A stretch of 15,472 bases of DNA, from the IMG/VR virus record IMGVR_UViG_2703718837_000003, positions 1 through 15,472 of that record; one strand, given 5' to 3'. The notes below the pieces were generated by a model. It was not told the DNA's origin and did not search any database. It saw only the letters and a list, made by a program, of their open reading frames with translations. Numbering within the stretch: position 1 is the stretch's first letter; the number at the start of each line of letters is the position of its first letter. This document shows, in pieces, positions 420 to 15,036 of the stretch. This stretch comes from a virus. Lineage: Duplodnaviria > Heunggongvirae > Uroviricota > Caudoviricetes. Both the position numbers and the translations under genes were made by a program.

Positions 420-1010
420 ATGTCTCGAATTTATGCTTACTGTCGGGTATCAACTCTGGAACAGACAACCAAAAATCAACGTCGGGAAATCGAAAGTGCA
501 GGTTTTAACATCAAATCTCAGCAAATAATTGAAGAACAAATTAGCGGCTCAGCAGCAACCAGTGAGCGTCCTGGTTTTAACCAGTTGCTTGATCGACTGA
601 AAAGAGGTGATGCATTGATTGTCACAAAACTGGATCGCCTCGGTTGTAATCCAATGGATATCAGTAAAACGGTGGAACAACTGACCAAAGCAGGTATCAA
701 AGTGCATTGCTTAGCATTGGGGGGCGTTGACCTGACCAGTCCACCTGGAAAAATGATGATGCAAGTAATTTCAGCAGTCGCTGAATTTGAGCGAGACCTT
801 TTACTTGAGCGTACTCATTCAGGGATATTAAGAGCACGGGGCGCAGGAAAGCGATTTGGTCGCCCACCTGTGTTAAATGATGAACAAATACAGAGGGTAC
901 TAGAGCAAATTAAGTCAGGTATAAATATAAGTGACATTGCCCAAGAATTCAAAACCTCGCGGCAAACCATTTTAAGAGCTAAAGCAAAAAATCAGACACC
1001 TGATATATAA
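420..1010 (+). CDS. pinQ: Serine recombinase, Pin/Gin/Hin-family DNA invertase
   Basis: 196-aa [18 protein letters not shown]... with the resolvase/invertase N-terminal catalytic serine motif (YxRVST) and a C-terminal helix-turn-helix. Q versus R suffix is inferred from Qin-like synteny (cspI, cspB, cspF, hok). Confidence 0.9.
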
Positions 1011-1107: not shown

Positions 1108-1683
1108 CTACGGTAGGGCTGGCCATTCAATATCCGGTGCAGTTGATGTATCAACACGGTTCAGCAACACCCGATACTTTTTCCAGGCTTCCAGCAACAA
1201 GGTTTCTTCCTCCGTTGCGATCTCCAGATCCACAGCATCCTGAAGCGGCGCTATATGCTCACTGGCTACCTGCATCAGGCTGTTTTTTGTTTCTTCCGCC
1301 TCCCGGATCCGGAACAGTTTTTCTGCTTCCGTATCCTTCACCCAGGCTGTGCCGTTCCACTTCTGAAACTCCCCTTCCGGGGATAACCAGGTGACATTTT
1401 CCGGTAATGAGCCGAGTTCAGAAATAAATAACGCGTCGCCGGAAGCCACGTCATAAACCGTTTTACCCCGATGATCTTCAACGAGATGCCACGATGACTC
1501 ATCACTGTTGAAAACAGCCACGAAACCAGCCGGAATATCTGGCGGTGCAATATAGGTACTGTTTGCAGGCAGACCTGTATGAGGTGGAATATATGCGTCA
1601 CCGTCACCAATAAATTCATTAGTTCCGGACAACAGATTATAAATTTTTATGGTCCGTGCTTGTTCACTCATTCTGAATGCCAT
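1108..1683 (-). CDS. tfaQ: Tail fibre assembly protein Tfa (lambda tfa family)
   Basis: The C-terminal 191 aa of the long minus-strand ORF, starting [18 protein letters not shown]...[10 protein letters not shown], is near-identical to remembered lambda Tfa. ATG is at 1681-1683 (minus strand) and the stop at 1108-1110. Confidence 0.85.
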
Positions 1684-4600
1684 TATGCAAGCCTCACAAT
1701 ATAATGCGATGTTTTTGACGGTGTTTTCCGCGTTACCAGCAGCGTTAACGGTGATGGTGTGTCCATGTGAGCCAATCGCAACCGAGTGCGTATGCGCACC
1801 AATACCTACAGTATGTGCATGTGCGCCAGAACTTGCTGCAGTACCAGACAGCGAGTGGGTATGAGCACCTGCTGACTGTGTCTGAATACGTTGATAATAC
1901 GATCTACTGGAAGAAGTCCCCGGGCTTACTTGATACTGTGAATCCTGGACATAAGTGAACCCACCGCCATCATAAAATGCTAACGCAGAACCGCCGCCTC
2001 CTGGCCAACGAATACCATTACCGTGAGTATGAGCACCGGCAGACCCCGTAGAGCCACTCAGACTGTGCGTATGCGCCCCGGTGTTATTCGTGGATTTAGT
2101 GCCGTAATCAAACGACGATGTGGTTTTCGTCCCCAAATCCGTACTGGATGCGCTGGCGCTGTGGGTATGCGATTTAATGCCATCCTGTTCCTGAGACAAT
2201 ACGGCACGACCACTGGCGGGCTTGCCCTTAATCGTCCAGCCACGCATATCAGGGATCACGCCTGACGGATAAGCGGCTGCAAGTTTCGGGTAGGCAGATT
2301 TGTCAAAAGTCTGCCCCTGCATCAGGGCATAACCAGACGGAACGGTATCTGATGGCCACGGGATTGGTGCGCCGACTGGGTAGCTTTCTGGTGGAGGATT
2401 TTTCGAGGTATAAACTTCTGCCCAGTCTTCCTCAAAACCATAGCCATCTCTTGAGGAACGGTAGAACAGACCACCATTTCTGTAATGCGCCTTCATCTGC
2501 AGGGTCCGGCAACTTCCGACTCCGGTATAGAAGTTAACCAGAATATAGCTGTCGCCAGAGCGGGTGACATTGTAAGCGCCTGATTCGGCATTCCAGGGAA
2601 CGCCACCATCCGCATCGGCATATGTATCCGTTGCCCTTCTGGCAAAAGCAGCCACATGCGCGGCGGTTAAAGTAATATCTTTGGAACCATCAAACTCAAC
2701 ACCAGAAACCAGTCTTGGCGTTTGCAGCTTTGTTGCTGTTAATGCATTACCGTTCAGACTTGCGGACAGTTTGGTTCCAATAACCAGCTCGCCGGTTGCG
2801 TTATCAATAGCAAACGGTCTTAATGTATTCCAGCCACCATAAACATCACCTTGATTGGTAAGCAGCAGGTAAGTTTTAGCGCCATCATTACGCCATAATG
2901 CACCATACTCCCCACCTATCATTCGAATCTGATTACCACCACGCGCTACAATTTCGTCTGTGGCAAAAAGTTTTTTGCACGACAAGTTATCGTTAACGAT
3001 TAACGAATGAGACTCATAAAAACCACGCCCACTCTTAAAATCAAGGATAACGTCCGCCGCGATACATTCAGTCGCTGGATTTGTTGCCCCAAACTTATAG
3101 GTCGTATCATTAACAACGAGATCAGCACCAGGTGCGGATATTGACAGGCCATCTTCGATAAACGCAAAAACAGGGAAAGCAGCGCCATCAACATAGAACA
3201 CAGAGCGCAAATCATCGCCCTTATTACTCATCATTATTGAGTGGATGGCTCGTTCATTGTTTTGATATTGCCAGAACATTCCATAAGCATAACGCCCCCT
3301 GTCAGTCCAGCCACCAGGCATAACAAATCCGTTAAACTCGCAGTTATTCATCGGATCGCCTGCGATTCGCGTTGCCGTGGTGATAATGACCCTTGATGCC
3401 AGTTCGCTTACTGAGCCAGCAGAACGCATAACAACAACAGGGTAATATTTTCCAGATGTTGCACCTGCAGGAGCGTTAACCCGCACATAACGCATACCAC
3501 GCTTATCAGCAAAGTCTGTTTTACTGACCGCGTTAATGTTGTTCAGGAAGCGTCCCTTATCGGGTATATCAGCGCCGTTCTGGTTTTTCTGCAGACGTTT
3601 CTCTGCATTGTCATAGGCTGATTTTACTGCCTTTGGCGTTGCCGCCAGCGTTTCAGACGTACTGTTGGTCGCACTGCTGAGCTGTACTATCCCCTTTTTC
3701 GTCGTACTTGCATCCTCAAGCGCCACGGCGGATGCAATATCCTCTGCCCGTTTAGCTGCTGTCTCGGCGCGCGTTGCCGCGGATTCCGCCGTACTTTTGC
3801 TCTGAGCTGCCGCCGTCGCACTGCCAGCTGCCTCTGTCGCCTTCGTGGATGCCGTCGTGGCGCTGCTCTTCGCTGCTGACGCCTGTCTGGTCGCCTCATC
3901 TTTTGAAGCAGACGCCGATGATGCCGATGACGCCGCCGAACTGGCTGACGATGCGGCAGCCGTTTTTGAGGATTCTGCGCTGGTTTCCGACGCTTTCGCG
4001 TTCGTTTCGGATGTCTTCGCTGCGGAAGCAGAACTCGCTGCTGCGCTGGCCTGTTCAGTGGCTTCGCCAGCCTTCGTTGTGGCTGTTGAAGCAGACGATG
4101 CGGCACTTTCTGCCGACTTTCCGGCAGCGGTGGCACTGGCTGAGGCCTGCCCGGCACTTGTTGACGCGGCGCTGGCAGATGATGCAGCCGCTGTTTTTGA
4201 GTCTGCTGCTGCGGAGGCACTCTGTTCCGCTGCCGTCTCAGAAGACCTGGCGTTCGTCTCGGACGTTTTTGCCGCCTTCGCGGAATTTCCTGCCGCCGTT
4301 GCCGAGGAAGCTGCGCTACTGGCGCTCGAGGATGCGTTCGTTTCTGATGATTTCGCTGCCTCTTTTGAGGCCGCCGCATCCCGGGCTGAGGTGGCAGCTT
4401 CTGACGCTTTCGTGGTCGCGGTGGATGCAGAAGTGGCTGCTGATTGTTGTGATGCTGCGGCATTCGTTTCTGACTTTTTCGCCGCACCGGCACTGGTGGC
4501 CGCCGCGCTTTTTGAGGACTCTGCAGCGGCAGCACTTTTTTCCGCTTCAGTGGCCTTTGTTGATGCCGTTCCTGCGCTGGAAGACGCTGACTGATCCGGT

Positions 4601-5403
4601 TCATTACGGTAGCCGGTCATGGCATCCATAGCTGGCTGAAAATATTCACCGCAGTGCGGACATGGCCAGTACCAGCGGCGGCGGTCACCTCGATTGTAAA
4701 GGGAAAGAATACCAGTCGTCGGTGGCGCTTCATGAGGCGACTTACGTCGCCATTTGCTGTCGCAGATGTCACGTCCCGGCGAGCTCTCCACCAGAGTCAT
4801 CCCGGCGGACATAAATGTGGTGGTACGTTTTGAGGCCAGGGAGAAACCATCACCCTCGCTGTCGATATTCTCCGGAAAACGGTCGTAATCGGTTAAGGCG
4901 ACAAACCGGTAATCCGACGACGACATAATGTTGACCGAGGGCCAACCAATTTTAAGGAACGAGCCATCCCTGAACGTCTTATCATGGACATTATTGTCGT
5001 TACGACGTGGACTCATTCTTTTCTTTACCGCCGCACTGCTTCTGAACGTTCTGTCGAGGCGCTTTTTAGAATGCTCGCGGGCCTTATCTTCGGTCATCTG
5101 CACAACGAGCATGTCCGAAGGATCGCAAACGATGGTATAGACAATCCATCCATCGATCAGACCAATGGTCTTCCCTGTTCGCGCAGGACCAACAAAAATC
5201 ACCGCATCGTATTCACGCGATGCCAGGCAGTTCATGGGCTCAATGATGTAGGGTGTCAGTTCAGGATCCCATGGCACCGAGTTACCAGCCCCCTTGGGAA
5301 CACGCATGAATTTTTTAACAGCCTCCGAAATCGGCATGCGACGTGGTGGGGAAAATCCTGCCGATATGTCCCTTCCCAAATTTCGGGCTGATGAAAAACC
5401 CAT
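1684..5403 (-). CDS. Composite ORF: N-terminal ~270 aa of a lambda A-type large terminase fused in frame to a side tail fibre protein (StfR/StfQ-like) lacking its N-terminus
   Basis: The first ~270 aa carry a Walker-A-like VGPARTGKT and a CPHCGEY zinc-finger-like motif, as in lambda gpA. From ~aa 271 the sequence is Ser/Ala-rich repeats ([28 protein letters not shown]...) and the C-terminal domain (GAPIPWPSD..., GAHTHSLSG..., [21 protein letters not shown]) matches remembered lambda/K-12 Stf. A GGAGGA Shine-Dalgarno precedes the ATG at 5401-5403 and overlaps the stop of the upstream small-terminase gene. No stop separates this from tfa. Confidence 0.8.
3750..4595 (-). repeat. GC-rich low-complexity Ser/Ala/Thr-rich coding repeat inside the tail fibre gene
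   Basis: Reiterated motifs ([23 protein letters not shown]) in the Stf frame. The region lacks stop codons in several frames, producing the overlapping track ORFs 3687-4604(-), 3774-4631(+) and 3845-4594(+). Confidence 0.7.
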
Positions 5404-5411
5404 TATTCCTC

Positions 5412-5939
5412 CTAGAGACTCTCTCCTTCCTCATCAGGAATTAATTCAGCAGCACAAGCCTCGTAGGATTTTTCCTGAAGAGTGTATCGCAGGTCATCAA
5501 TGGCCTGCTGTACAACGCCGACGGCCTGAGGAGTCAGAGCGCAATCGCGTTCAAGAACATCCGGAATTGTCTCCAGAACCTGGACGACAGCCTTTCTCAT
5601 GGACGAATAGACGATGACTACTTCATCAACTGGGATGAGTTTTCGCTGCTCCTTTTCCAGCTTGATCCTTTCATTTTCAGACTGGTACCAGTCCTTTCTC
5701 TCTTTCGGCTCCATACGGGATGGATCATGAACAGAGTCTGCTGCCTCATGCTTCACACTAAACAGGGCGGGCCCGACATGCTGCAGGGCGTAAACGGGGT
5801 TCCCCCTGACAGTCGCAGCCACAGGAGTGTTGGCCGCGAGGAGCCGTTTTTTTACTGTGTCCCGGTGAAGCCCAAAGGCCTCGGCGATTTTAAAAACACT
5901 CCAGTAATAAGCATCACCGATCCCGCTCACATTTGACAT
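5412..5939 (-). CDS. Terminase small subunit (Nu1/NohA-like DNA-packaging protein)
   Basis: ~175-aa ORF immediately downstream of the cos-like site and immediately upstream of, and coupled to, the terminase large-subunit start. Preferred start is the second ATG (MSNVSGIGD...) with GGAG 7 nt upstream. Assignment is by position and architecture; the sequence is not a close lambda Nu1 match. Confidence 0.6.
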
Positions 5940-6114
5940 AAGCAACTCCATCTGGCAGGTGAAAATCAGGTTTATTTATATATTTCAATTAATTGCAAAC
6001 TGGTCTAATGACAGGAAGAAAAAAATATTGTACAGGTGAAAAGAGAAATAACTTTTAATTATCAATAAATTACCAAACATGCTGCCGCCGCCATGGAAAT
6101 GCAAAAACTAGCCT

Positions 6115-6140
6115 TTTTCCGCGACGCTCCCGCCCCGTGG
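6115..6140. other. cosN-like cohesive-end site
   Basis: The minus-strand reading ACGGGGCGGGAGCGTCGCGGAAAAAGG resembles the remembered lambda cos junction ...ACGGGGCGGCGACCTCGCGGGTTTTCG. It lies ~180 bp upstream of the small-terminase start, as in lambda. Confidence 0.5.
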
Positions 6141-6315
6141 CAGGGGCCCCCACCGGGAGGACCCGACAGCCTGACAGCCGTGACGAGCATCTGATACAGC
6201 GCTTTACATAATGGCATAGGAATAATTCAGAAGGACATCACAGCATGCCCACACAAATTAGTGTGAGTGTCCTGTTTCTTTCTACGCACAGGACTGACGA
6301 GCATGAGGGGAAAAT

Positions 6316-6483
6316 ATGCGAACCATAAATGCCTCATCTTCAGCAATGCAGCCGGCATTCGAACAGGACGATATTGTAAATTCACCTAATTACGAGGACA
6401 TTGCAGTAGTTGAATTGCAGCTCTGTATTAGCATGACAGTGACAGAATGCGACATTGACTCTGTCACAGGTGAAATAGTTTGA
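6316..6483 (+). CDS. Hypothetical small protein (55 aa)
   Basis: ATG at 6316 preceded by GAGGGG 5 nt upstream, stop TGA at 6481-6483. Acidic product MRTINASSSAMQPAFEQDDIV..., below the ORF-track length cutoff, no recognised homologue. Confidence 0.3.
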   Translation: MRTINASSSAMQPAFEQDDIVNSPNYEDIAVVELQLCISMTVTECDIDSVTGEIV

Positions 6484-6503
6484 ATGATTAGCAGTTATGG
6501 TGC

Positions 6504-6710
6504 TCAGTCAACCACCAGGGAATAATCCTTCGAATTCTTATCGTGCTTCACCAACGCTGCCTCAATTGCCCTGAATGCTTCCAGAGACACCTGATGTTCT
6601 ATACATGCAATTACAACATCCGGGTAACTCATAGAAATGGTGCTATTAAGCATATTTTTTACACGAATCAGATCCAACGAGAGTTCATCAGCAGATTGTT
6701 CTTTATTCAT
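6504..6710 (-). CDS. Hypothetical small protein (68 aa)
   Basis: Track [23 protein letters not shown]... with GGAG 7 nt upstream of the ATG. Convergent with the 55-aa ORF; may correspond to a ynfO-type Qin cargo gene but this is not confirmed. Confidence 0.45.
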
Positions 6711-7010
6711 TTTGTCGCTCCATGCGTTTGCTCGTCATCTAGCGGTTAAAATATTACTTCAAATCTTTCTACATAAAAGAGGAAAAGTATGAAAGTTTGA
6801 GTACATCGACCTTACATACATCTGTCGGTTGCATATCCCTCCTGGATGCCAGCAAGGCTCAACTTTGTTACGCAATCAACACTATTCATTAAAAACAGGC
6901 TTAATATTTGACATAAATCATCAACAAAACACAAAGAGGTCAGACCAGATTGAAACAATAAACACGATAATGCAAACTACGCGCCATCGTATCACATGGA
7001 AGGTTTACCA

Positions 7011-7421
7011 ATGGCTCAGGCTGCCATTTTTAAAGAAATATTCGATCAAGTGCGTAAAGATTTAAACTGTGAATTATTTTATTCTGAGCTAAAACGTCAC
7101 AATGTCTCACTTTATATTTACTATTTAGCCACAGATAATATTCACATTGTGTTAGAAAACGACAACATAGTGTTAGTAAAAGGACTCAAAAAGGTTGTAA
7201 ATGTTAAATTCTCCAGAAACAAACATCTTATAGAGACCTCCTATAATAAGTTGAAATCAAAAGAAATCACATTTCAACAATACAGGGAAAATCTTGCTAA
7301 AGCAGGAGTTTTCCGATGGGTTACAAATATCCAGGAACACCAAAGATATTACTATGCCTTTGATAACTCATTACTATTTACTGAAAGCATCCAGAAAACT
7401 ACACAGATCTTACCACGCTAA
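7011..7421 (+). CDS. ydfO: DUF1398-family protein YdfO
   Basis: [32 protein letters not shown]... matches remembered K-12 YdfO. Start chosen at the second ATG (7011), which has GGAAGG 7 nt upstream; the track ORF starts 15 nt earlier. Confidence 0.8.
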
Positions 7422-7521
7422 ACCATAACGTCCGGCTTCTCTCACTCCTGAGCCGGACTGCATTGGTTTAATAAAAACCATCAACAATTGTGATTTAGAT
7501 ATTCGGAACCATTCAAATATA

Positions 7522-7550
7522 ACAAAACCCCGTAAAAACGAGGTTTATGG
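7522..7550 (-). terminator. Candidate rho-independent terminator downstream of gnsB
   Basis: On the minus strand, a 7-bp stem (one G-U pair) with a short loop followed by TTTTGTT. Confidence 0.35.
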
Positions 7551-7572
7551 ATAAATTTTATTATTGAATACA

Positions 7573-7746
7573 TCAGATTAAATTAATCTTGACATCATAG
7601 CTTTCAAGACCCGTCATTTTTTCCCGTGCGGTAAACTGAATACTGGTAACTTCCTTCCCGGTCTTTTTCTTAAGTTCAATAATTTTTTTTGTTATATATT
7701 CAGAAATATCTGCTTCTGCTTTTGTTTTTAAGTCTTCAATATTCAT
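7573..7746 (-). CDS. gnsB: GnsB (Gns family, 57 aa)
   Basis: Hand translation of the minus strand gives MNIEDLKTKAEADISEYITKKIIELKKKTGKEVTSIQFTAREKMTGLESYDVKINLI, matching the Gns family. Absent from the ORF track because it is under 60 aa. Confidence 0.8.
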   Translation of the reverse strand: MNIEDLKTKAEADISEYITKKIIELKKKTGKEVTSIQFTAREKMTGLESYDVKINLI

Positions 7747-7917
7747 CATTTCCTCTTTTAGTCTGTTATGACTTTCCAGTTACACAGTAAGTCGATTATA
7801 TGGTGCAAACGTGTAAAAGATAAGATGAAACATCGCAATAATCAACATACGATAGTCTAAATTTTACACAAACAGACAAAGAGAATTTTCCTGAATTATC
7901 AATGCAATAGCATCAAA

Positions 7918-8148
7918 TCAACTCAAGAGCCTTATTGCTGCTTCCAGAATTTCTTCTGAAGTAACATGTCGATCCGCGGCTACATAAATGACTTTATGAT
8001 CTCCGGTCAGAGATGGAAACCCTGCGGCCATTACAGTAAGGTGTGTTTTTTCGCCATTTGGATATTCACGCATGATGGTGTTAACTCCAGTCATCGCTGG
8101 CACTACCACTGCTGGTTCAGAGTTAAAAAAAACTATGATTTTTTTCAT
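7918..8148 (-). CDS. ynfN: Small cold-shock-associated protein YnfN
   Basis: The C-terminal 51 aa (MREYPNGEKTHLTVMAAGFPSLTGDHKVIYVAADRHVTSEEILEAAIRLLS) match remembered YnfN. The frame is open upstream to 8190, so the start is uncertain (8073, 8148 or 8190). Confidence 0.6.
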   Translation of the reverse strand: MKKIIVFFNSEPAVVVPAMTGVNTIMREYPNGEKTHLTVMAAGFPSLTGDHKVIYVAADRHVTSEEILEAAIRLLS

Positions 8149-8189
8149 GATGTTACCGTAGTATGTGAGTATCCATCGAATAGACACCA

Positions 8190-8217
8190 AGCAAAAAAGC
8201 TCCCGAAGGAGCCTTCA
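8190..8217 (-). terminator. Rho-independent terminator downstream of cspI
   Basis: Minus-strand GC stem (GCTCC-TTCG-GGAGC) followed by TTTTTT. Confidence 0.55.
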
Positions 8218-8419
8218 TTTTCACTTTTTTAAATCCAACGACAGACGGCTGGCATTTAAGTATTGTGAAATATTATCAAATGTAATCATCATTGATTTAC
8301 AAAAGATACATTTTGCCCCGAAAGGATTCATGTCAGAAACATCAAAAGATGATGTTCTATACTGGGAACCATGACAACACGGGCATCTAAAGTGAATATG
8401 GTTTGTAATATTGTCTACC

Positions 8420-8632
8420 TCAAAGCGCCACTACATGAACAGCGGCAGGACCTTTAGGTCCGTTCTCAATACCAAATTCAACTTCCTGATTCTCAGTTAA
8501 TGTTTTGAAATCGTTGCTCTGAATTGCTGAGAAATGGACAAACACATCTTTGCTGCCATCTTTCGGCGTGATGAAACCAAAACCTTTTTCAGGGTTAAAC
8601 CATTTCACTAAACCAGTCATTTTGTTAGACAT
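8420..8632 (-). CDS. cspI: Cold-shock protein CspI
   Basis: The 70-aa product [70 protein letters not shown] is a full cold-shock domain matching CspI. AAGG lies ~7 nt upstream of the ATG, as in csp genes. Confidence 0.95.
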
Positions 8633-8994
8633 AATTATTACCTTTTGAAGAAATTAGCCCTTGGGCAGAATGGTCCGAAAAAAAATATCAGAGAGAAAAA
8701 CCAACAAGGAAATCTCAAGAGGTACAAATAATAAAATTATAACAATGACTGCTTCAGATAAATTTGTAACAAACCAGAACACCATTAACGCATGATTAAC
8801 CACCCATAGCAAGGATTACTTTTGTAAAGAAAAACACAGCAATGAAAGAATAGCTTTATTTATTAATAAAACGTGTCATTCTGATTAAGACCTTTTATCT
8901 TACCCTTAAGATTTCAGGAATTTTGGCTCATGGAAGAGTCCTTTTTATTTAAATTTTACATTCCGCGATGTAAATGTTCCGATTTAATATTACC

Positions 8995-10018
<1,024 letters not shown>

Positions 10019-10022
<4 letters not shown>

Positions 10023-10330
10023 ATATATTTATGATGAGGACGCTCGTGCTTATTGGCAGGATTTTCAATCTTAAAGGAGTACTGATGCTGCAGATAAGAC
10101 TCAACTTTTTCTGACAATTTTTCTGCTACTTCCAGGAAGACTTGCCGGACGCTCCTTCTGGCTGCTGCCTCATAAAACTCCAGCGCAGCTCCTTCAACAC
10201 GGTCCATGGCGACATCCAAGCCAAAAATTTCACCGTCAAAGCGTTCTTTGTCCTGTAAGGCTACAGTTACCGTAACTTTATTCTCAAAATTACGGACTCC
10301 TTTCACAACCAGTTCATAGTCTTGAGTCAT
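10019..10330 (-). CDS. ydfR: DUF1327-family protein YdfR, between holin and endolysin
   Basis: 103-aa ORF MTQDYELVVKGVRNFENKVTVTVALQDK... with GAGGAG 9 nt upstream of the ATG. Confidence 0.75.
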
Positions 10331-10334
10331 TGGA

Positions 10335-10550
10335 TTACTCTCCTCTCGCAGCCTTACGCCTGTCTTCTTTAATCTTGAAATAAAGATTTGTCAGATACGT
10401 CAGCAGGCCAAAAACCAGGCTACCCAGCACACCGATTGCAGCCCACTGTGACGGAGTTACTTTATCGAGTAACTGCAATGCCCAGAAACCAGCATTACCC
10501 GCCGATGTGCCATAGGCAACACCTGTTGTTAACTTATCCATTGATTTCAT
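10335..10550 (-). CDS. essQ: Class II holin / pinholin (phage 21 S-type)
   Basis: 71 aa from [28 protein letters not shown]... with the dual-start motif (Met1, Met4) and two transmembrane segments, matching S21. The track ORF extends 25 codons upstream; the start is placed at the MKSM Met with GAGGA just upstream. Confidence 0.85.
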
Positions 10551-10769
10551 ATCCTCACCCCGATGTACACGGATGGTGCAATATGTTTGAAAAGATCGGA
10601 GTCTACGGGGTAGTTTTGACAGCACACGTTGTTCTCAACGGCGCTAAAGAAACATACACATTAAAAATGTGAGTAATTATTTTGAAAGAAAGTCATATAT
10701 AAAATAATAATACGAGAAATGTTTTCATATTTAGTGTACTGTATACGGCCATTTATACAGGAAAAGCCT

Positions 10770-10940
10770 ATGTCAGAACGTAAAGACTCAAAATCACGCC
10801 GTAATTATCTCGTTAAATGTTCCTGCCCAAACTGCACCCAAGAGTCAGAACACAGTTTTTCAAGAGTACAAAAAGGTGCCCTTTTGATCTGCCCTCATTG
10901 CAACAAAGTATTCCAGACAAATCTTAAAGCTGTAGCCTGA
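10770..10940 (+). CDS. Zinc-ribbon microprotein (56 aa, CxxC...CxxC), possibly YnfU
   Basis: MSERKDSKSRRNYLVKCSCPNCTQESEHSFSRVQKGALLICPHCNKVFQTNLKAVA with two CxxC pairs and AGGA ~8 nt upstream of the ATG. Length and location fit a Qin zinc-binding microprotein recalled as YnfU, but the name is not certain. Confidence 0.5.
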   Translation: MSERKDSKSRRNYLVKCSCPNCTQESEHSFSRVQKGALLICPHCNKVFQTNLKAVA

Positions 10941-10994
10941 TTGATTTTATTAGTAACAAGTATTTTTATATTTTAATAATATATTTAAAGCAGA

Positions 10995-11022
10995 TAATAA
11001 AAAACCCGCCTGAGCGGGTTTG
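10995..11022 (-). terminator. Rho-independent terminator downstream of cspB
   Basis: Stem CCCGC-CTGA-GCGGG; on the minus strand it is followed by TTTTTTATT. Confidence 0.6.
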
Positions 11023-11302
11023 AGATTGTGGTGCTTTTTGTGGGAGTCATCCACTTACGCACTTTGTTTTGCCATGCCAGCAGTTAGCTTCTGCTGTAAA
11101 ACTATTCATGCAGCAAACCTGCACTTCACCACAATGGTTAGCATACTTTTCCTGATTAAGATTTTGCCAAATATGCTGGCCATTGTTTCATGTATTGGAC
11201 CTCCTTAATTTTTATTAAAGAAATCCAATATTCACTACTCTGTCCGTATCTCTACTCAGGCATCAGCCTTCTTCGTTATCGTATACAGACGAGCGATGAA
11301 TT

Positions 11303-11518
11303 TTAATCAGTAATGATGACATTTGCTGCTGCAGGACCTTTAGCACCACTCTCTATAGAGAAGGTAACCTTTTGACCTTCAAATAAGGTTCGATAATTAT
11401 CATTCTGAATCGCAGAAAAATGCACAAACACATCTTTACTACCATCAACAGGAGAAATAAAGCCGAAACCTTTATCAGCGTTAAACCATTTTACTAAACC
11501 AGTCATTTTATTTGACAT
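11303..11518 (-). CDS. cspB: Cold-shock protein CspB
   Basis: The 71-aa product [71 protein letters not shown] matches CspB. Confidence 0.95.
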
Positions 11519-11828
11519 TCTACATTCCTTAACTTGAGCCTTTCGGCATAAATGGTTTGCATAACAGAAACGACTTCGTACTTAATTGGAGAGACTCAAA
11601 GAAGGAATAAGTGAATAACACCTGAAATGAGAACTGCTTTAGTAAACTACTTCGTATATCGTCTGTTCTTCAAACCGACGCAGTCATTAACTCATAGTTG
11701 AACATATGAAGCAATGTTTATTTTAGACATCCAGCCACCTTCAATCCTATCAAAAAAGTAGTTTTCTCCAGGAACGTGTGTATGGTGCACCAGGTTATCA
11801 GTATTAAGGAGTTTTTCTGTCCCCTAAA

Positions 11829-12019
11829 ATGACAGGAATTGTCAAAAACTTTGACTACAAAAGCAGCAAAGGTCTTATATTCCCATCCGATGGCGTATCG
11901 ATGCCCAGCTTCACGTTTCAGCTCTCAATCTTCGAGATGCAGAAGAAATTACCACAGGATTACGCGTGGAATTTTGCCGGATAAATGGTTCGCGTGGACC
12001 TTCAACTGCCAATGTTTAT
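11829..12019 (+). pseudogene. cspF: cspF-like cold-shock-domain gene, apparently frameshifted
   Basis: The N-terminal half of the cold-shock domain ([22 protein letters not shown]) is in one frame from ATG 11829. The C-terminal half ([42 protein letters not shown]) is in the -1 frame, consistent with a 1-bp deletion near 11893. The C-terminal frame then has no stop until 12355. Confidence 0.5.
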
Positions 12020-12061
12020 CCCGGGATGAGATTCAATATCTCTATTGCCCCATTTAAAGCA

Positions 12062-12100
12062 CAAAAACCCGCTTATAAGCGGGTTTTCTACTTTTTTCTA
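12062..12100. terminator. Bidirectional rho-independent terminator (candidate tR' for the late promoter and terminator for cspF)
   Basis: Stem AAACCCGC-TTATAA-GCGGGTTT flanked by an A-run on the left and a T-run on the right, so it can terminate either strand. Confidence 0.6.
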
Positions 12101-12133
12101 AACGTCGGATACACAAAGCCCATCGTTGAGAAA

Positions 12134-12162
12134 ATCTTATCCATGTTTTTTGAAAAATGCAA
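12134..12162 (-). promoter_or_regulatory. Candidate sigma-70 late promoter (PR'-like) immediately downstream of the Q gene
   Basis: Minus-strand TTGCAT, 17-nt spacer, TAAGAT, ~30 bp downstream of the Q stop and ~40-65 bp upstream of the bidirectional terminator, as for lambdoid PR'/tR'. Confidence 0.35.
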
Positions 12163-12193
12163 ACATCATGTCGCCATCTTCAGCAAAAATCAT

Positions 12194-12946
12194 TTATCTC
12201 GTCACCTTCCTCAATTGCGCTTCCGCGTATGCTTCTTCCTGCCAGCACTTTGTTACCAGTTTACCAATGACGTCCGCATACCCCTTATACCACTGATAAT
12301 CGGTCAGGTCTGGTACCAGCTTCTGGACATGACGTCGTGCCAGCGTGGTCGGTAAACGACTAAACCGGTTTCCATTACAACGCCCACAAATCTTATATAC
12401 CGGTACGCCATGAAACCGGGTTCTTTTTTCATCCAGAACAATCCCTTTACCCTTACACCCTCTGCACGCTGTGCTGACTTCGCCCTTACCATGGCAATGC
12501 TGACATAGTTCCTTCACCCATTCTTCCTTGATTACAGATTCCCCGCGTCTGTAGTGTTTCACCACTTCGCGCAATACATTATAAAATCCCGTACCTGAAC
12601 AATGCTCACAGCGAGCCTTACTTGCCGCAGACCTGGAGTAATCAGCAAAGGCAAAATTCACGAGGTAAGGAATAATCTGTAACCGGATTTCTTCACTCAA
12701 TTTGTTCAATGTCGGGTTATCCAGTGCCATCGCGTAATTTAGCAGGCCTTCAATCGCAAACTGAGCGTCCTGAACACCAACTTTTGCCAGAAATAAGGCC
12801 AACCCAAGTGGTGCTTTCGACTGCACCATCCCCTGCGCTGCCATTACATCCGTAATTGTTAAACAACCGGTGCCTGTCGCTGGAGCGTCATCGCTCAATT
12901 TTGGAGATTTTGGGGAGTAATATTTTGGTAAGGCTTCAAGGTTCAT
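12194..12946 (-). CDS. quuQ: Late-gene antiterminator Q (phage-82-type)
   Basis: 250 aa from [10 protein letters not shown]... with multiple CxxC zinc-binding motifs, matching the remembered QuuQ/82-type Q family. GGAG lies 8 nt upstream of this ATG; the track ORF starts 10 codons earlier. Confidence 0.85.
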
Positions 12947-12959
12947 GCTCGTTCTCCAC

Positions 12960-14009
12960 TTACGCCAGTACGCCAATTGCCAGTGCGCGATCGATAAAAC
13001 GAAATATCAGCTCCAGTTGGGAGCCATACTTCTCTTCAAATGCCACTGTATCCGTATGCAGCTCGTTGTGATGCTTTCTGCACAAAGGCAACACAAAGAG
13101 ATCATGTGCTTTTGTTCCCATTCCGCCCTGCCCGTGACCAATCAGATGATGCGGATCGTCGGCTGGCATACCGCAGCAAGCACACGGCTGTGTCTTAACC
13201 CAACGTGTGTATTTCTCCTTAACCCAGCGGCGACGTTTAGGCAGCTTCATGAAAGATTCCGGAGACTCTGGATCAACGGTGATGCTTACCACCGTCTTTT
13301 CCTGTGGTGGTTTTTGTTGCTGGTGGGCGTAAGGCAACGGTGCAAGATTTTTTGTGCGTTGTTTCAATATGCTGGTGGCGGTCTGCTCTCCCGGTACGAT
13401 GTCGCTCTCGCGGTACACCGAGCAGATTTTTTCCGCTGGTAATCCCAGCGAACGACGTAATACCGCTTCCGGTAGCGCGTCCGCCACCTGATTGCGGACC
13501 GCCCACCAGGATAATTCAGCCAGAGATAATTCACGCTCCTGCGTACCGCTTATTGCGTGACGGATGACGTCAATCACCCATGCTGTCAGATTTTGTTGAG
13601 CAAGCAGCTCCAGTGATTCCGATGTCTGGTCACGTAGCTGGTTGTCGCAGTGCCAGCACAACACCATTGCGCCGGTACCATAACGGTGAATGACGGTTTC
13701 GCTGTGATGATAATCGCCGTGTGGCCACTGGCAGGATTTAATATGGCGCAACAGCCAGTCAGACAATGCACCAGCACCACCAGCAGCACGAATCACCCGT
13801 GCGTTACTGAAAAACGGCAGCAATGTTTTGTCTTCCACCAGCGGCTGGCGAACGGCAGGAACGACCCCGGACGGCAGATTACGCATGCTTTTCGGTTCCG
13901 GTTCCACCAGCACTCGAGGATTATGAAATATCTGTATGGATTCACGGCCCGGCTTAAGGACCACCAGCCCAAGCTCAGGCACCAGAACAGGTCTAAGTAA
14001 TACCCGCAC
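12960..14009 (-). CDS. ydfU: DUF968-family protein YdfU with a C-terminal HNH-like motif
   Basis: The C-terminus carries CACCG...DDPHHL...KAHD...CRKHHNELH. The probable start is the GTG at 14007-14009 with GGAGG 3 nt upstream, giving 349 aa; the track ORF starts at an upstream GTG (14048). Confidence 0.75.
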   Translation of the reverse strand: MRVLLRPVLVPELGLVVLKPGRESIQIFHNPRVLVEPEPKSMRNLPSGVVPAVRQPLVEDKTLLPFFSNARVIRAAGGAGALSDWLLRHIKSCQWPHGDYHHSETVIHRYGTGAMVLCWHCDNQLRDQTSESLELLAQQNLTAWVIDVIRHAISGTQERELSLAELSWWAVRNQVADALPEAVLRRSLGLPAEKICSVYRESDIVPGEQTATSILKQRTKNLAPLPYAHQQQKPPQEKTVVSITVDPESPESFMKLPKRRRWVKEKYTRWVKTQPCACCGMPADDPHHLIGHGQGGMGTKAHDLFVLPLCRKHHNELHTDTVAFEEKYGSQLELIFRFIDRALAIGVLA

Positions 14010-14010
14010 G

Positions 14011-14289
14011 TTACCTCCAGATCCGTTGCTGGAAAGTGCGGGACGCACGTGGTGGGCGTTCGGAATAAGGCAGCCTGACAGAGATTATCCAGTGCCGATA
14101 GTCGAGACTGAGAGCTTTCTTAACCTCGAACCCGCGCCTGCGGTAAGAATGAATCAGCCATTCGGCCTGTTCTGCAGTGCATGGAGGGTGCTGGAACCAT
14201 TCAGACTTGAATGCGTGAGAATACCGCCCGTGCGTGCAGGCAAGAACGGGCGAATTATCAGAATTGTAATATTTTACGTTGCGTGCCAT
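14011..14289 (-). CDS. Hypothetical protein (92 aa), translationally coupled to ydfU
   Basis: ATG with GGAG 8 nt upstream. Its TAA stop is 1 nt from the ydfU GTG start, and its last codons contain the ydfU Shine-Dalgarno. No recognised homologue. Confidence 0.5.
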   Translation of the reverse strand: MARNVKYYNSDNSPVLACTHGRYSHAFKSEWFQHPPCTAEQAEWLIHSYRRRGFEVKKALSLDYRHWIISVRLPYSERPPRASRTFQQRIWR

Positions 14290-14355
14290 CGGTTTTCTCC
14301 GGTGGCACGGTGTTACTCAGCGGGAGTTCAGCCCCGCGCAAGATTGTAGATGAGT

Positions 14356-14607
14356 TTATTCTTCTGCAAAAGCTGAAAAGCCTGCTTTTATTCCGATCTC
14401 TTTCAGTGCCTGTAATGAAGTGACAAACTCACCTTCGCGCAAGATAAATCCGTCTGTCACTCGACCATCCACAAAATTAATTAACGCAGCCCCATTCTTT
14501 CGCAAACACATAATGCGGTAATGACTAACAATATTTCCATTTTCAACGCACACAGCATAGAGGCCATCTTCACAAAAAATTTTACGCAGTTCTTCGATGT
14601 TCATCAT
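14356..14607 (-). CDS. rem: Small prophage protein Rem (83 aa)
   Basis: 83-aa ORF MMNIEELRKIFCEDGLYAVC... with GGAAGGA upstream. Called Rem from its length and position between ydfU and hok in Qin; the sequence itself is not remembered, so this is a synteny call. Confidence 0.55.
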   Translation of the reverse strand: MMNIEELRKIFCEDGLYAVCVENGNIVSHYRIMCLRKNGAALINFVDGRVTDGFILREGEFVTSLQALKEIGIKAGFSAFAEE

Positions 14608-14722
14608 CAGAATCCTTCCGGATAATTAGCTCTCCCCTTTAAGGGACCATCCCTCTTATCCCTGCGCGCTACTTAAGTATTTTTGATTCTATTCCGGCAC
14701 CGTCCAGAACTTCAAACGCGTT

Positions 14723-14757
14723 GAAAATAAAAACAAAAACCCGCCGAAGCGGGTTAA
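14723..14757 (-). terminator. Rho-independent terminator downstream of hok
   Basis: Stem ACCCGC-CGAA-GCGGGT; on the minus strand it is followed by a long T-rich run. Confidence 0.6.
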
Positions 14758-14823
14758 GTGCGGGTGCGTTGAAGATGCCTGCCACATCAGAGGTGGCGAG
14801 GGATTTCTCCCTCGCCGGGTCTC

Positions 14824-14979
14824 TTACTCCTCAGGTTCGTAAGCTGTGAAGACAGCGACCTCCGTCTGGCCGGTTCGGATTCGTACCTCGCAGAGGTCTT
14901 TCCTCGTTACCAGTGCCGTCACTATGACGGTTAAACAGATGACGATCAGGGCGATTAACATCGCCTTTTGCTGCTTCAT
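14824..14979 (-). CDS. hokD: Hok-family membrane toxin (type I toxin)
   Basis: MKQQKAMLIALIVICLTVIVTALVTRKDLCEVRIRTGQTEVAVFTAYEPEE (51 aa) matches the Hok/Gef family. A perfect 9-bp hairpin (GGCGAGGGA-TTTC-TCCCTCGCC, 14794-14816) follows the stop. Confidence 0.85.
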   Translation of the reverse strand: MKQQKAMLIALIVICLTVIVTALVTRKDLCEVRIRTGQTEVAVFTAYEPEE

Positions 14980-15036
14980 AGCCTGCTTCTCCTTGCCTTT
15001 CGGCACGTAAGAGGCTAACCTACATGTGTCTAGCAT
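14824..15036 (-). CDS. Mok-like overlapping reading frame (in-frame N-terminal extension of hok)
   Basis: The 70-aa frame MLDTCRLASYVPKGKEKQAMKQQ... resembles chromosomal Mok proteins (MokC-like N-terminus, from memory). Confidence 0.45.
   Translation of the reverse strand: MLDTCRLASYVPKGKEKQAMKQQKAMLIALIVICLTVIVTALVTRKDLCEVRIRTGQTEVAVFTAYEPEE

Follow-up and report, generated by a model that had tools for sequence, protein, structure and literature searches.

An in-frame terminase, tail-fibre and Tfa fusion, very probably a non-functional scar in a Qin-type cryptic prophage of Escherichia coli

Among the closest described counterparts of the locus studied here is the cryptic prophage Qin of E. 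coli K-12 (nohA'-'stfQ-tfaQ-pinQ, b1545-b1548). It has lost its head and tail genes by deletion, and what is left of a packaging gene borders directly on a remnant of stf, the side tail fibre gene. K-12 Qin retains only 320 aa of Stf, and its nohA'::'stfQ junction is out of frame and lies on a TA dinucleotide. In a second K-12 prophage, DLP12, an N-terminal fragment of the large terminase is joined directly to a gene of the tail-fibre module (aaaD'::'tfaD). There, a lambda-type A gene is broken at nt 308 and joined to nt 147 of tfa through the microhomology TAT; the join adjoins an intact small-terminase gene and cos, and the joined genes are annotated as pseudogenes. A third example, in strain AR_0369, occupies the Qin locus and is itself an in-frame fusion of the terminase N-terminus to Stf (WP_249825693.1, 1360 aa, “phage terminase large subunit family protein”), running from about nt 995 of the terminase gene to nt 196 of stf.

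The stretch of DNA analyzed here (the window, 15,472 nt) is the entire contig LONZ01000065.1 of the short-read draft assembly GCA_001575355.1 of E. coli, and it contains a cryptic prophage of Qin type, represented by its late region. The window is collinear with K-12 Qin over positions 1-1883 and 6933-14993 at 93-97.6% DNA identity, and it reproduces the Qin right arm, from pinQ to hokD, in both gene content and gene order at high DNA identity. The backbone and order common to both run through pinQ, tfa, the stf remnant, the packaging remnant, a ydfO-like gene, gnsB, cspI, the lysis genes, Q, ydfU, rem and hokD. The serine recombinase gene pinQ, of the DNA-invertase family (420-1010, plus strand), is convergent with tfa and marks the prophage end as it does in K-12 Qin. 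Relatives with the same genes are located at ydfJ; the window contig stops short of the chromosomal flank. The similarity to K-12 is interrupted between 2379 and 6933, where no nucleotide match to K-12 was found in the Qin region: where K-12 Qin has the lambda Nu1-type nohA and ynfO, the window has a DUF1441 small terminase and the stub of a GpA-family large terminase.

The stub forms the start of a single ORF of 1431 aa that begins with an ATG and occupies 1108-5403 on the minus strand. Pfam searches assigned GpA_ATPase to aa 40-274 (E 1.1e-72, profile positions 2-223 of 247), Gp34_trimer to 767-866, Collar to 1011-1058 and Phage_fiber to the fibre part, and Caudo_TAP to the C-terminus (1312-1431); with this length and these E-values, the frame cannot be a chance ORF. 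A preliminary description, made from the sequence alone, had proposed a deletion scar in which a terminase N-terminal stub is fused in frame to an N-terminally truncated Stf-like fibre, and both Pfam and our alignments agree with this. It gave the length of the ORF correctly, but counted two parts where there are three: the terminase and stf part spans 1684-5403, and tfa is fused to it within the same ORF (1108-1683) through a 5-bp deletion at 1703/1704. The protein is listed at NCBI as WP_432763956.1 under the name “phage terminase large subunit family protein”, its exact sequence occurs on one contig only, and clustering at 90% places it among tail-fibre chaperones.

A Qin-like prophage of strain CFSAN061763 encodes an intact terminase of 699 aa, which the terminase stub of the window (codons 1-270; 4594-5403, minus strand) matches at 270 of 270 residues. 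The identity stops past ...YRNEPD (D270, window 4593/4594), and DNA-level homology runs to window 4593, corresponding to nt 811 of the 2100-nt gene. Homology to stf begins at 4598-4592; the switch lies near residue 270, as first proposed. In the intact protein, the ATPase domain spans aa 40-303 (PF05876 positions 2-247 are covered) and the nuclease domain (PF20454) spans aa 325-643. The stub retains the N-terminal region, the Walker A motif (VGPARTGKT), the motif CPHCGEY and most of the ATPase domain, and it breaks between the two CxxC pairs of a zinc ribbon (CPHC at 248-251 versus CPHC at 282-285). Missing are 429 of 699 aa, made up of the final ~33 residues of the ATPase domain, the entire nuclease domain and the C-terminus, and Pfam found no match to the C-terminal endonuclease domain PF20454 in the fused ORF. 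Measured against the GpA family (PF05876 plus PF20454), the N-terminal homology is therefore present, and a complete ATPase and a nuclease are missing. Alignment of aa 1-270 to lambda gpA confirmed the similarity to terminases at 24% identity; the original label “lambda A-type” is accordingly apt for the family (E 1.1e-72 to PF05876) and not for any closer kinship, and the stub gene is of the cdtI/Qin-like GpA type.

The middle part is an Stf-like side tail fibre that lacks ~165 N-terminal residues (1684-4592, minus strand). Its homology begins at ~nt 494-500 of the full-length stf of strain EH01-18-02. In the protein, residue 309 of the ORF aligns to residue 205 of lambda Stf at 75% identity, which makes residue 271 equivalent to residue ~167; segments of the fibre are 75% and 58% identical to lambda orf-401. 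The Ser/Ala-rich shaft is followed by a Gp34_trimer-like domain, a Collar domain and His-rich fibre repeats. The shaft and the C-terminal Collar and fibre repeats are those of an Stf-like protein, but two further features of such proteins are lacking, namely the attachment domain and a stop codon of its own. The tail-attachment domain PF08400 (phage_tail_N), found at aa 1-134 of the full-length EH01 fibre, is absent from the fused ORF by Pfam. At 1703..1704 (minus strand), 8 codons before the normal stf stop, the bases TTAAC, present in K-12 and MB06234, are deleted, and the resulting frameshift lets stf read through into tfa. The latter is full length (191 codons; 1108-1683, minus strand), has its own ATG at 1683..1681 and doubles as the C-terminus of the fused ORF; it is collinear with lambda Tfa and covers positions 1-130 of 131 of the tail fibre assembly domain PF02413 (Caudo_TAP).

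The deletion junction lies at 4593..4594 (minus strand), where terminase ...AACCGGATC/CCTTT and stf ...TCGGCTC/AGTCAG are joined as ...AACCGGATCAGTCAG (slashes mark the breakpoints). Terminase nt 811 is thereby connected in frame to stf nt ~499, with an exact microhomology of 2 nt (TC), or 5 of 6 if CGGnTC is counted. Intact relatives define what is missing: in the CFSAN061763 prophage, 17 whole genes separate terminase from stf, in an order that phage cdtI shares, and the stretch absent from the window amounts to ~18.3 kb (17,818 nt plus ~499 nt of stf). All 17 genes are gone from the window, in line with the earlier view that the element is morphogenesis-defective. That view had the head genes and “most” tail genes removed; the head genes are indeed gone, and so are all tail genes except stf and tfa. 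The exact 38-mer of the junction had zero matches in GTDB representative genomes and JGI metagenomes, and the junction was found in one piece in 0 of 5,426 complete E. coli genomes; it is known from one contig of one short-read draft assembly only.

The stf side of the join falls at the start of the Ser/Ala-rich stretch, which is open in several frames (ORFs 3687..4604 on the minus strand, 3774..4631 and 3845..4594 on the plus strand). The preliminary description had noted this low-complexity repeat, correctly for the stf side, and suggested that it favoured an in-frame join; the latter is unsupported. The join used a 2-nt microhomology, and a priori one join in 3 would be in frame. Nor is the scar a product of a Pin/Gin invertase, since stf and tfa contain no AAACCNNGGTTT core and no convincing inverted repeats. 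The junction is a new allele of a known phenomenon, namely Qin scars with differing endpoints.

Upstream of the fused ORF, the start of the packaging module is preserved. A lambda-type cos has a 12-nt cohesive end at the physical end of the genome, ~190 bp upstream of the small-terminase gene. In the window, the small-terminase gene (5412-5951, minus strand) belongs to the DUF1441 family by Pfam, and phages cdtI and Tritos have it under the annotation small terminase. A cosN-like sequence, GGGCGGGAGCGT, lies 184 bp upstream of its ATG at 5951 (6124..6135, minus strand); 8 of its 12 bases agree with lambda GGGCGGCGACCT, and the CGCGG that comes next is identical in lambda. We located this candidate site through the left ends of phage records, as window position 6135 aligns with base 1 of the cdtI and Tritos records. 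Searching for the lambda cos 12-mer with up to 2 mismatches had returned only a chance match inside pinQ. Of the packaging remnants listed in the preliminary description, the small-terminase gene and an ATPase stub are present, together with a probable cos site. Across the cos region, the small-terminase gene and nt 1-811 of the large-terminase gene, the window is 99.2-99.9% identical to phages cdtI (AB285204) and Tritos (OV696610) and to the CFSAN061763 prophage. Unlike the window, these three have a complete terminase gene and a full head and tail set, and their stf alleles differ from that of the window.

Equivalent direct joins of terminase to stf occur in other strains, complete genomes among them. 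In EH01-18-02, nt 926 of the terminase gene is joined 30 bp upstream of stf, and the terminase endpoint in MB06234 is nt 1099. The AR_0369 terminase gene is ~99.6% identical to that of the window; its fusion keeps 162 more codons, shows ~5 nt of microhomology at the junction compared with 2 nt in the window, and ends in an stf that is followed by a mere tfa fragment, whereas the window stf is fused to the full tfa. DLP12 resembles the window in the direct join of a terminase fragment to the tail-fibre module, but its partner is tfa and not stf. In-frame fusions of a terminase N-terminus are also numerous in the protein collection. Clustering would produce such an excess, as it hides out-of-frame stubs within the clusters of terminases, and we do not read it as a sign of selection.

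Taken together, the fused ORF is very probably a scar without function, left in a cryptic lambdoid prophage of the Qin type. Its ancestor would have had a full late operon, comprising cos, the small and large terminase genes, portal, ClpP/capsid, tail genes, J, lom, stf, tfa and pin. Illegitimate (homology-independent) recombination through the 2-nt microhomology would have joined terminase nt 811 to stf nt ~499, removing ~18.3 kb either in one step or through a second step that erased an older junction, and the in-frame join would be due to chance. The loss of 5 bp close to the stf stop would have followed, merging stf with tfa to give the frame of 1431 codons. We infer that the product is inactive in packaging and adsorption, with no nuclease, an incomplete ATPase, no attachment domain and no heads or tails to act on; any transcription would be as the promoter-distal part of the late, Q-dependent transcript. 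All of this is decay of the ordinary prophage kind.

The preliminary description had assumed a single deletion. The data are as compatible with two steps: the window endpoints (811, ~499) lie outside those of AR_0369 (995, 196) and EH01 (926, -30), and a second, small deletion could have erased an older terminase-stf junction, taking away 486 bp if that junction was of the AR_0369 type or 641 bp if it was of the EH01 type. Beside the junction, AR_0369 and the window have nearly identical stf flanks, and the length difference of 486 nt equals 162 codons, such that both fusions are in frame. We nevertheless regard a two-step origin as the less likely course, although a realistic one, since no intermediate turned up in the same lineage, sites with only 2 nt in common are no likelier to undergo a small deletion than a large one, and a single 18-kb event is more parsimonious. 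An insertion sequence at the breakpoint (IS3 family with IEE, or IS30), lost together with the interval through its excision or through adjacent-deletion chemistry, is an improbable source of the scar. Close relatives do have IS elements exactly in the deleted interval: in CFIAFB20190167, an IS911-like element separates a capsid gene from stf, both of them truncated, and in SI-NP020 the terminase stub is followed by an IS3-family element and IS30. Furthermore, the IS30 and IEE pathways are reported to yield deletions that also remove the IS (PMC9333248; bioRxiv 10.1101/2023.06.07.543989). However, no IS remnant is present at 4593 and the window junction has no TA signature. The IS of CFIAFB20190167 abuts stf ~350 nt upstream of the window breakpoint, a different endpoint, and we therefore rejected an origin from that IS-bounded deletion.

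A misassembly, with terminase and stf fragments of different prophages wrongly joined in the contig, would be a natural concern in a draft assembly, given that both genes are repeated in E. coli genomes (the window has a median of 6 places per genome) and that the junction is unique to one contig. It is very unlikely, as the sequence common to the two sides is just 2 nt long, much shorter than any assembler k-mer, and both sides stand in Qin gene order and orientation; the joins in other strains speak against it as well. Slightly less credible still is domestication, in which the fusion would be expressed and kept because it serves the host, for instance at the cell surface, in exclusion or as a reservoir of fibre sequence. 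An open frame of 4.3 kb is long for a pseudogene, the fusion in AR_0369 arose independently and is likewise in frame, terminase-N fusions abound in the protein collection, and stf/tfa regions of defective prophages recombine into infecting lambda (PMC3945230). Yet a protein confined to a single contig, a fibre deprived of its attachment domain and an ATPase domain cut inside its fold argue against a retained product; the excess of in-frame fusions is what clustering would give, and a sequence reservoir requires no translation. A decayed, non-functional scar remains our preferred reading.

Examining the relatives revealed a separate pattern. At least 13 of their deletion junctions, including those of K-12 Qin and DLP12, lie on TA dinucleotides, and endpoints are re-used in different combinations, with terminase nt 794 and nt 1278 occurring four times each. 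Two recurrent endpoints match the flanks of a natural IS30 hot spot in IS911. The window junction, with its TC microhomology, lacks the TA signature and may fall outside this class. Scans of metagenomes for sequence that departs from terminase after the TA at nt 1278 or nt 794 had zero hits. Chimeras of a terminase flank at either of these sites with an IS30 end, in each of the two orientations, matched 0 complete E. coli genomes at >=80% coverage. Six 19-mer matches to the TA flanks in unrelated genomes were attributed to chance, the motif there encoding LDAMTGY. We likewise rejected the idea that the recurrent endpoints are intron-like (GT...AG), as three of the four junctions at nt 794 have the partner's T at nt 795. 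It is a speculative and rather unlikely idea that Qin-type and related lambdoid prophages lose their head and tail genes to a non-random, undescribed, site-preferring deletion activity and that the scar is one of its products; the TA pattern may instead stem from the known chemistry of IS30 or IEE, or from sampling.

By itself, the window is of small significance, adding one more route by which a Qin prophage decays. A three-part pseudogene annotated as a terminase is nonetheless a warning for automated calls of prophage completeness and for protein-family clustering. More broadly, Qin-type prophages at one chromosomal site have accumulated many independent scars between terminase and the tail-fibre module. 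The subset with TA endpoints could render the mechanism of prophage gene loss directly testable, and a site-preferring activity, if true, would provide a defined molecular route to prophage domestication.

The reading frame that spans the scar in the window is a single ORF of 1431 aa (1108..5403, minus strand), as both the ORF listing and the translation confirmed; judged from its sequence, it is a triple fusion of a terminase stub, a truncated side tail fibre (Stf) and Tfa. What the preliminary description observed is confirmed; its deletion-scar reading was right in outline and needs the corrections given below. The Pfam match to GpA_ATPase spans aa 40-274 (E 1.1e-72) and takes in no more than positions 2-223 of the 247-position profile; further matches are Gp34_trimer, Collar and Phage_fiber, with Caudo_TAP at aa 1312-1431. 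Over its first 270 residues the ORF has the same sequence as the intact 699-aa terminase encoded by the complete Qin-like prophage of E. coli CFSAN061763, and identity ends past ...GYRNEPD. The switch had been placed at about nt 4590, which is correct, as terminase identity stops at 4593. The label "lambda A-type" holds at the family level only, the stub being just 24% identical to lambda gpA. The intact terminase comprises an ATPase domain (40-303) and a nuclease domain (325-643) and carries the CPHC motif twice, at 248-251 and 282-285; the break falls between these two motifs, so that the putative zinc ribbon is split and 429 residues are removed.

From aa 271 onward the ORF is lambda-Stf-like, as proposed: its aa 309-456 are 75% identical to lambda orf-401 (residues 205-352). 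Strain EH01-18-02 (EH01), which has a related Qin copy, carries a full-length stf, and DNA homology to this gene sets in around its nt 494-500. In the full-length fibre, aa 1-134 form the tail-attachment domain PF08400, for which Pfam returned no match in the window ORF. Relative to K-12 and to MB06234, another strain with a related Qin copy, 5 bp (TTAAC) are missing between 1704 and 1703 (minus strand), eight codons ahead of the stf stop, a change affecting 1108-1760. The frame consequently passes the stf stop into the tfa ATG at 1683; tfa itself is full length and keeps this start codon.

The Ser/Ala-rich part of stf (window 3687-4631, both strands; GC 0.57-0.61, AT skew about -0.4) has three more open frames, of 305 aa (minus), 285 aa (plus) and 249 aa (plus), and public gene calls include a 245-aa antisense "gene" within this region (locus L003, 10810-11547). 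These extra frames are most likely composition artefacts. It had been suggested that a repeat open in several frames favoured an in-frame join. The region does read open in other frames, yet this only lengthens out-of-frame products and gives no bias to the position of the DNA join.

The entire 15,472-bp window is LONZ01000065.1, a contig of the E. coli draft assembly GCA_001575355.1. It contains hokD, rem, ydfU, Q (ydfT), cspB, essQ/rrrQ/rzpQ, cspI, gnsB, a DUF1398 gene, a DUF1441 small-terminase gene, the long ORF and pinQ, and is collinear with the K-12 Qin cryptic prophage over 1-1883 and 6933-14993 (93-97.6% identity). The MB06234 Qin matches the window from 4593 to 12018 at 99% identity. 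About 258 bp of K-12 (L005 10059-10316, covering ynfS) are missing at window 12018/12019, as they are in MB06234. The packaging modules differ: K-12 Qin has a lambda Nu1-type nohA plus ynfO (L005 3575-4970), whereas the window (2379-6933) has the DUF1441 small terminase, the GpA stub and a 68-aa ORF. No nucleotide similarity was found between these two intervals, which indicates that the type of packaging module varies among Qin copies through module replacement within Qin.

Among the packaging parts left, the small-terminase gene lies at 5412..5951, and a cos-like site lies upstream of it, in line with the claim that the cos site is kept. In the phage cdtI and Tritos records, base 1 aligns with window position 6135 (99.2-99.8% identity). 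The cosN-like sequence GGGCGGGAGCGT, followed by CGCGG, occupies 6124-6135 (minus strand) and precedes the small-terminase ATG by 184 bp. GGGCGGGAGCGT agrees with the lambda cohesive end in 8 of its 12 bases and the next pentamer, CGCGG, is identical; a direct search with the lambda 12-mer missed the site. In CFSAN061763, 17 genes separate terminase and stf (a W-like gene, portal, a ClpP/capsid fusion, two small head genes, eleven tail genes through J, and lom), and phage cdtI has the same layout. The missing stretch amounts to 17,818 nt and, in addition, roughly 499 nt of stf, some 18.3 kb in total. The head genes are gone, as described, and the loss of "most" tail genes was understated: every tail gene save stf and tfa is absent.

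The junction was located by aligning the window three-way with the intact terminase and with the nearest stf (terminase ...AACCGGATC before CCTTT; stf ...TCGGCTC before AGTCAG; joined sequence ...AACCGGATCAGTCAG), with an exact microhomology of TC. A join of this type is the expected product of homology-independent (illegitimate) recombination. There is neither an IS remnant nor an invertase crossover core, nor any inverted repeat of note. The exact protein occurs on one contig only. The junction in one piece is absent from all 5,426 complete E. coli genomes, and neither GTDB representative genomes nor JGI metagenomes contain a 38-mer spanning it, so the evidence is one draft assembly. An assembly mis-join is nevertheless unlikely, since the two sides share 2 nt and the flanking order is that of Qin.

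A single deletion, as originally proposed, is possible, and so is a secondary one. Equivalent scars in other Qin copies join terminase nt 926 (numbered in the 2100-nt large-terminase gene) to a point 30 bp upstream of the intact stf start (EH01), and terminase nt ~995 to stf nt 196 (numbered in full-length stf) in frame (AR_0369, annotated as a 1360-aa "terminase"). Their endpoints are staggered, so neither is derivable from the other; those of the window enclose both, which fits a single step as well as a secondary deletion. Other scars lie at terminase nt 1099 (MB06234), at about nt 1215 followed by IS elements (SI-NP020) and at nohA'::'stfQ (K-12 Qin). In CFIAFB20190167 terminase and portal are complete, the capsid gene is truncated, and an IS911-like element separates it from a truncated stf; the boundary of this IS and the stf breakpoint of the window are at different positions.

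With aa 1-420 of the long ORF as query, a protein search revealed many E. coli proteins in which this terminase N-terminus is fused to other late proteins, and we mapped the DNA junctions of the resulting fusions. TA is among the shared bases in 13 junctions, some in other Qin-like prophages (loci L009, L012, L014-L020, L031 and L032) and others in K-12 Qin and DLP12 (L005 ~3841 and L030 ~4160). TA makes up 3.5% of dinucleotides here, and four of the five junctions with exactly 2-nt microhomology have TA (p about 6e-7). Endpoints recur: terminase nt 794 (...CCGGCTA) has four partners (portal, J, ClpP/capsid and terminase nt ~1385), nt 1278 (...CAGGTA) is joined to four stf positions, one of these junctions sharing the right endpoint of K-12 nohA'::'stfQ, one stf endpoint pairs with nt 1099 as well as with nt 1278, and one tfa position with nt 817 as well as with nt ~980. 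At the DLP12 aaaD'::'tfaD junction of K-12 the shared bases are TAT. The junctions of the window, EH01, AR_0369 and one capsid fusion (GGTT) do not belong to the TA type.

The natural IS30 hot spot in IS911, with AAAAAAGGCTAC to the left of IS30 and ACCGCGCTC to the right, is occupied in K-12 IS911A (IS30A) and SI-NP020; IS30 copies in IS911-like elements lie at L034 2042-3262, L036 3460-4680 and L022 ~2320-3545, flanked by GGCTAC and ACCGCGCT. The left flank of the hot spot matches the nt 794 site (GGCTACCG) and the right flank the stf endpoint common to K-12 and L020 (ACCGCGCT), these matches being 6-8-mers. IS30 pathways can yield deletions that remove the IS as well (PMC9333248), and microhomology is used in IEE-assisted excision (bioRxiv 10.1101/2023.06.07.543989). 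IS30 was found at terminase nt 794 or nt 1278 in no complete E. coli genome. IS30/IEE chemistry is a candidate lead for the TA pattern.

NCBI names the chimeric ORF (1108-5403) "phage terminase large subunit family protein" (WP_432763956.1), and 90% clustering places it in a cluster of 1,839 tail fibre assembly proteins, mostly of ~190 aa; naming and clustering alike can be misdirected by fusion pseudogenes. The product would be without the nuclease domain of the terminase and the attachment domain of the fibre, and its ATPase fold would be incomplete; the element is morphogenesis-defective, as the preliminary description held, with no virion left to serve. We conclude, on sequence grounds, that the long ORF is a pseudogene; if transcribed, it would be the distal part of a Q-dependent late operon. 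As a whole the fusion is an ordinary scar left by deletion: this kind of prophage decay is well known, the allele is new, and in itself it is of low interest. K-12 Qin and Rac have been shown to serve infecting lambdoid phages as a reservoir for recombination (PMC3945230), and by analogy the stf and tfa DNA of the window may play the same part, a role that needs no translation.
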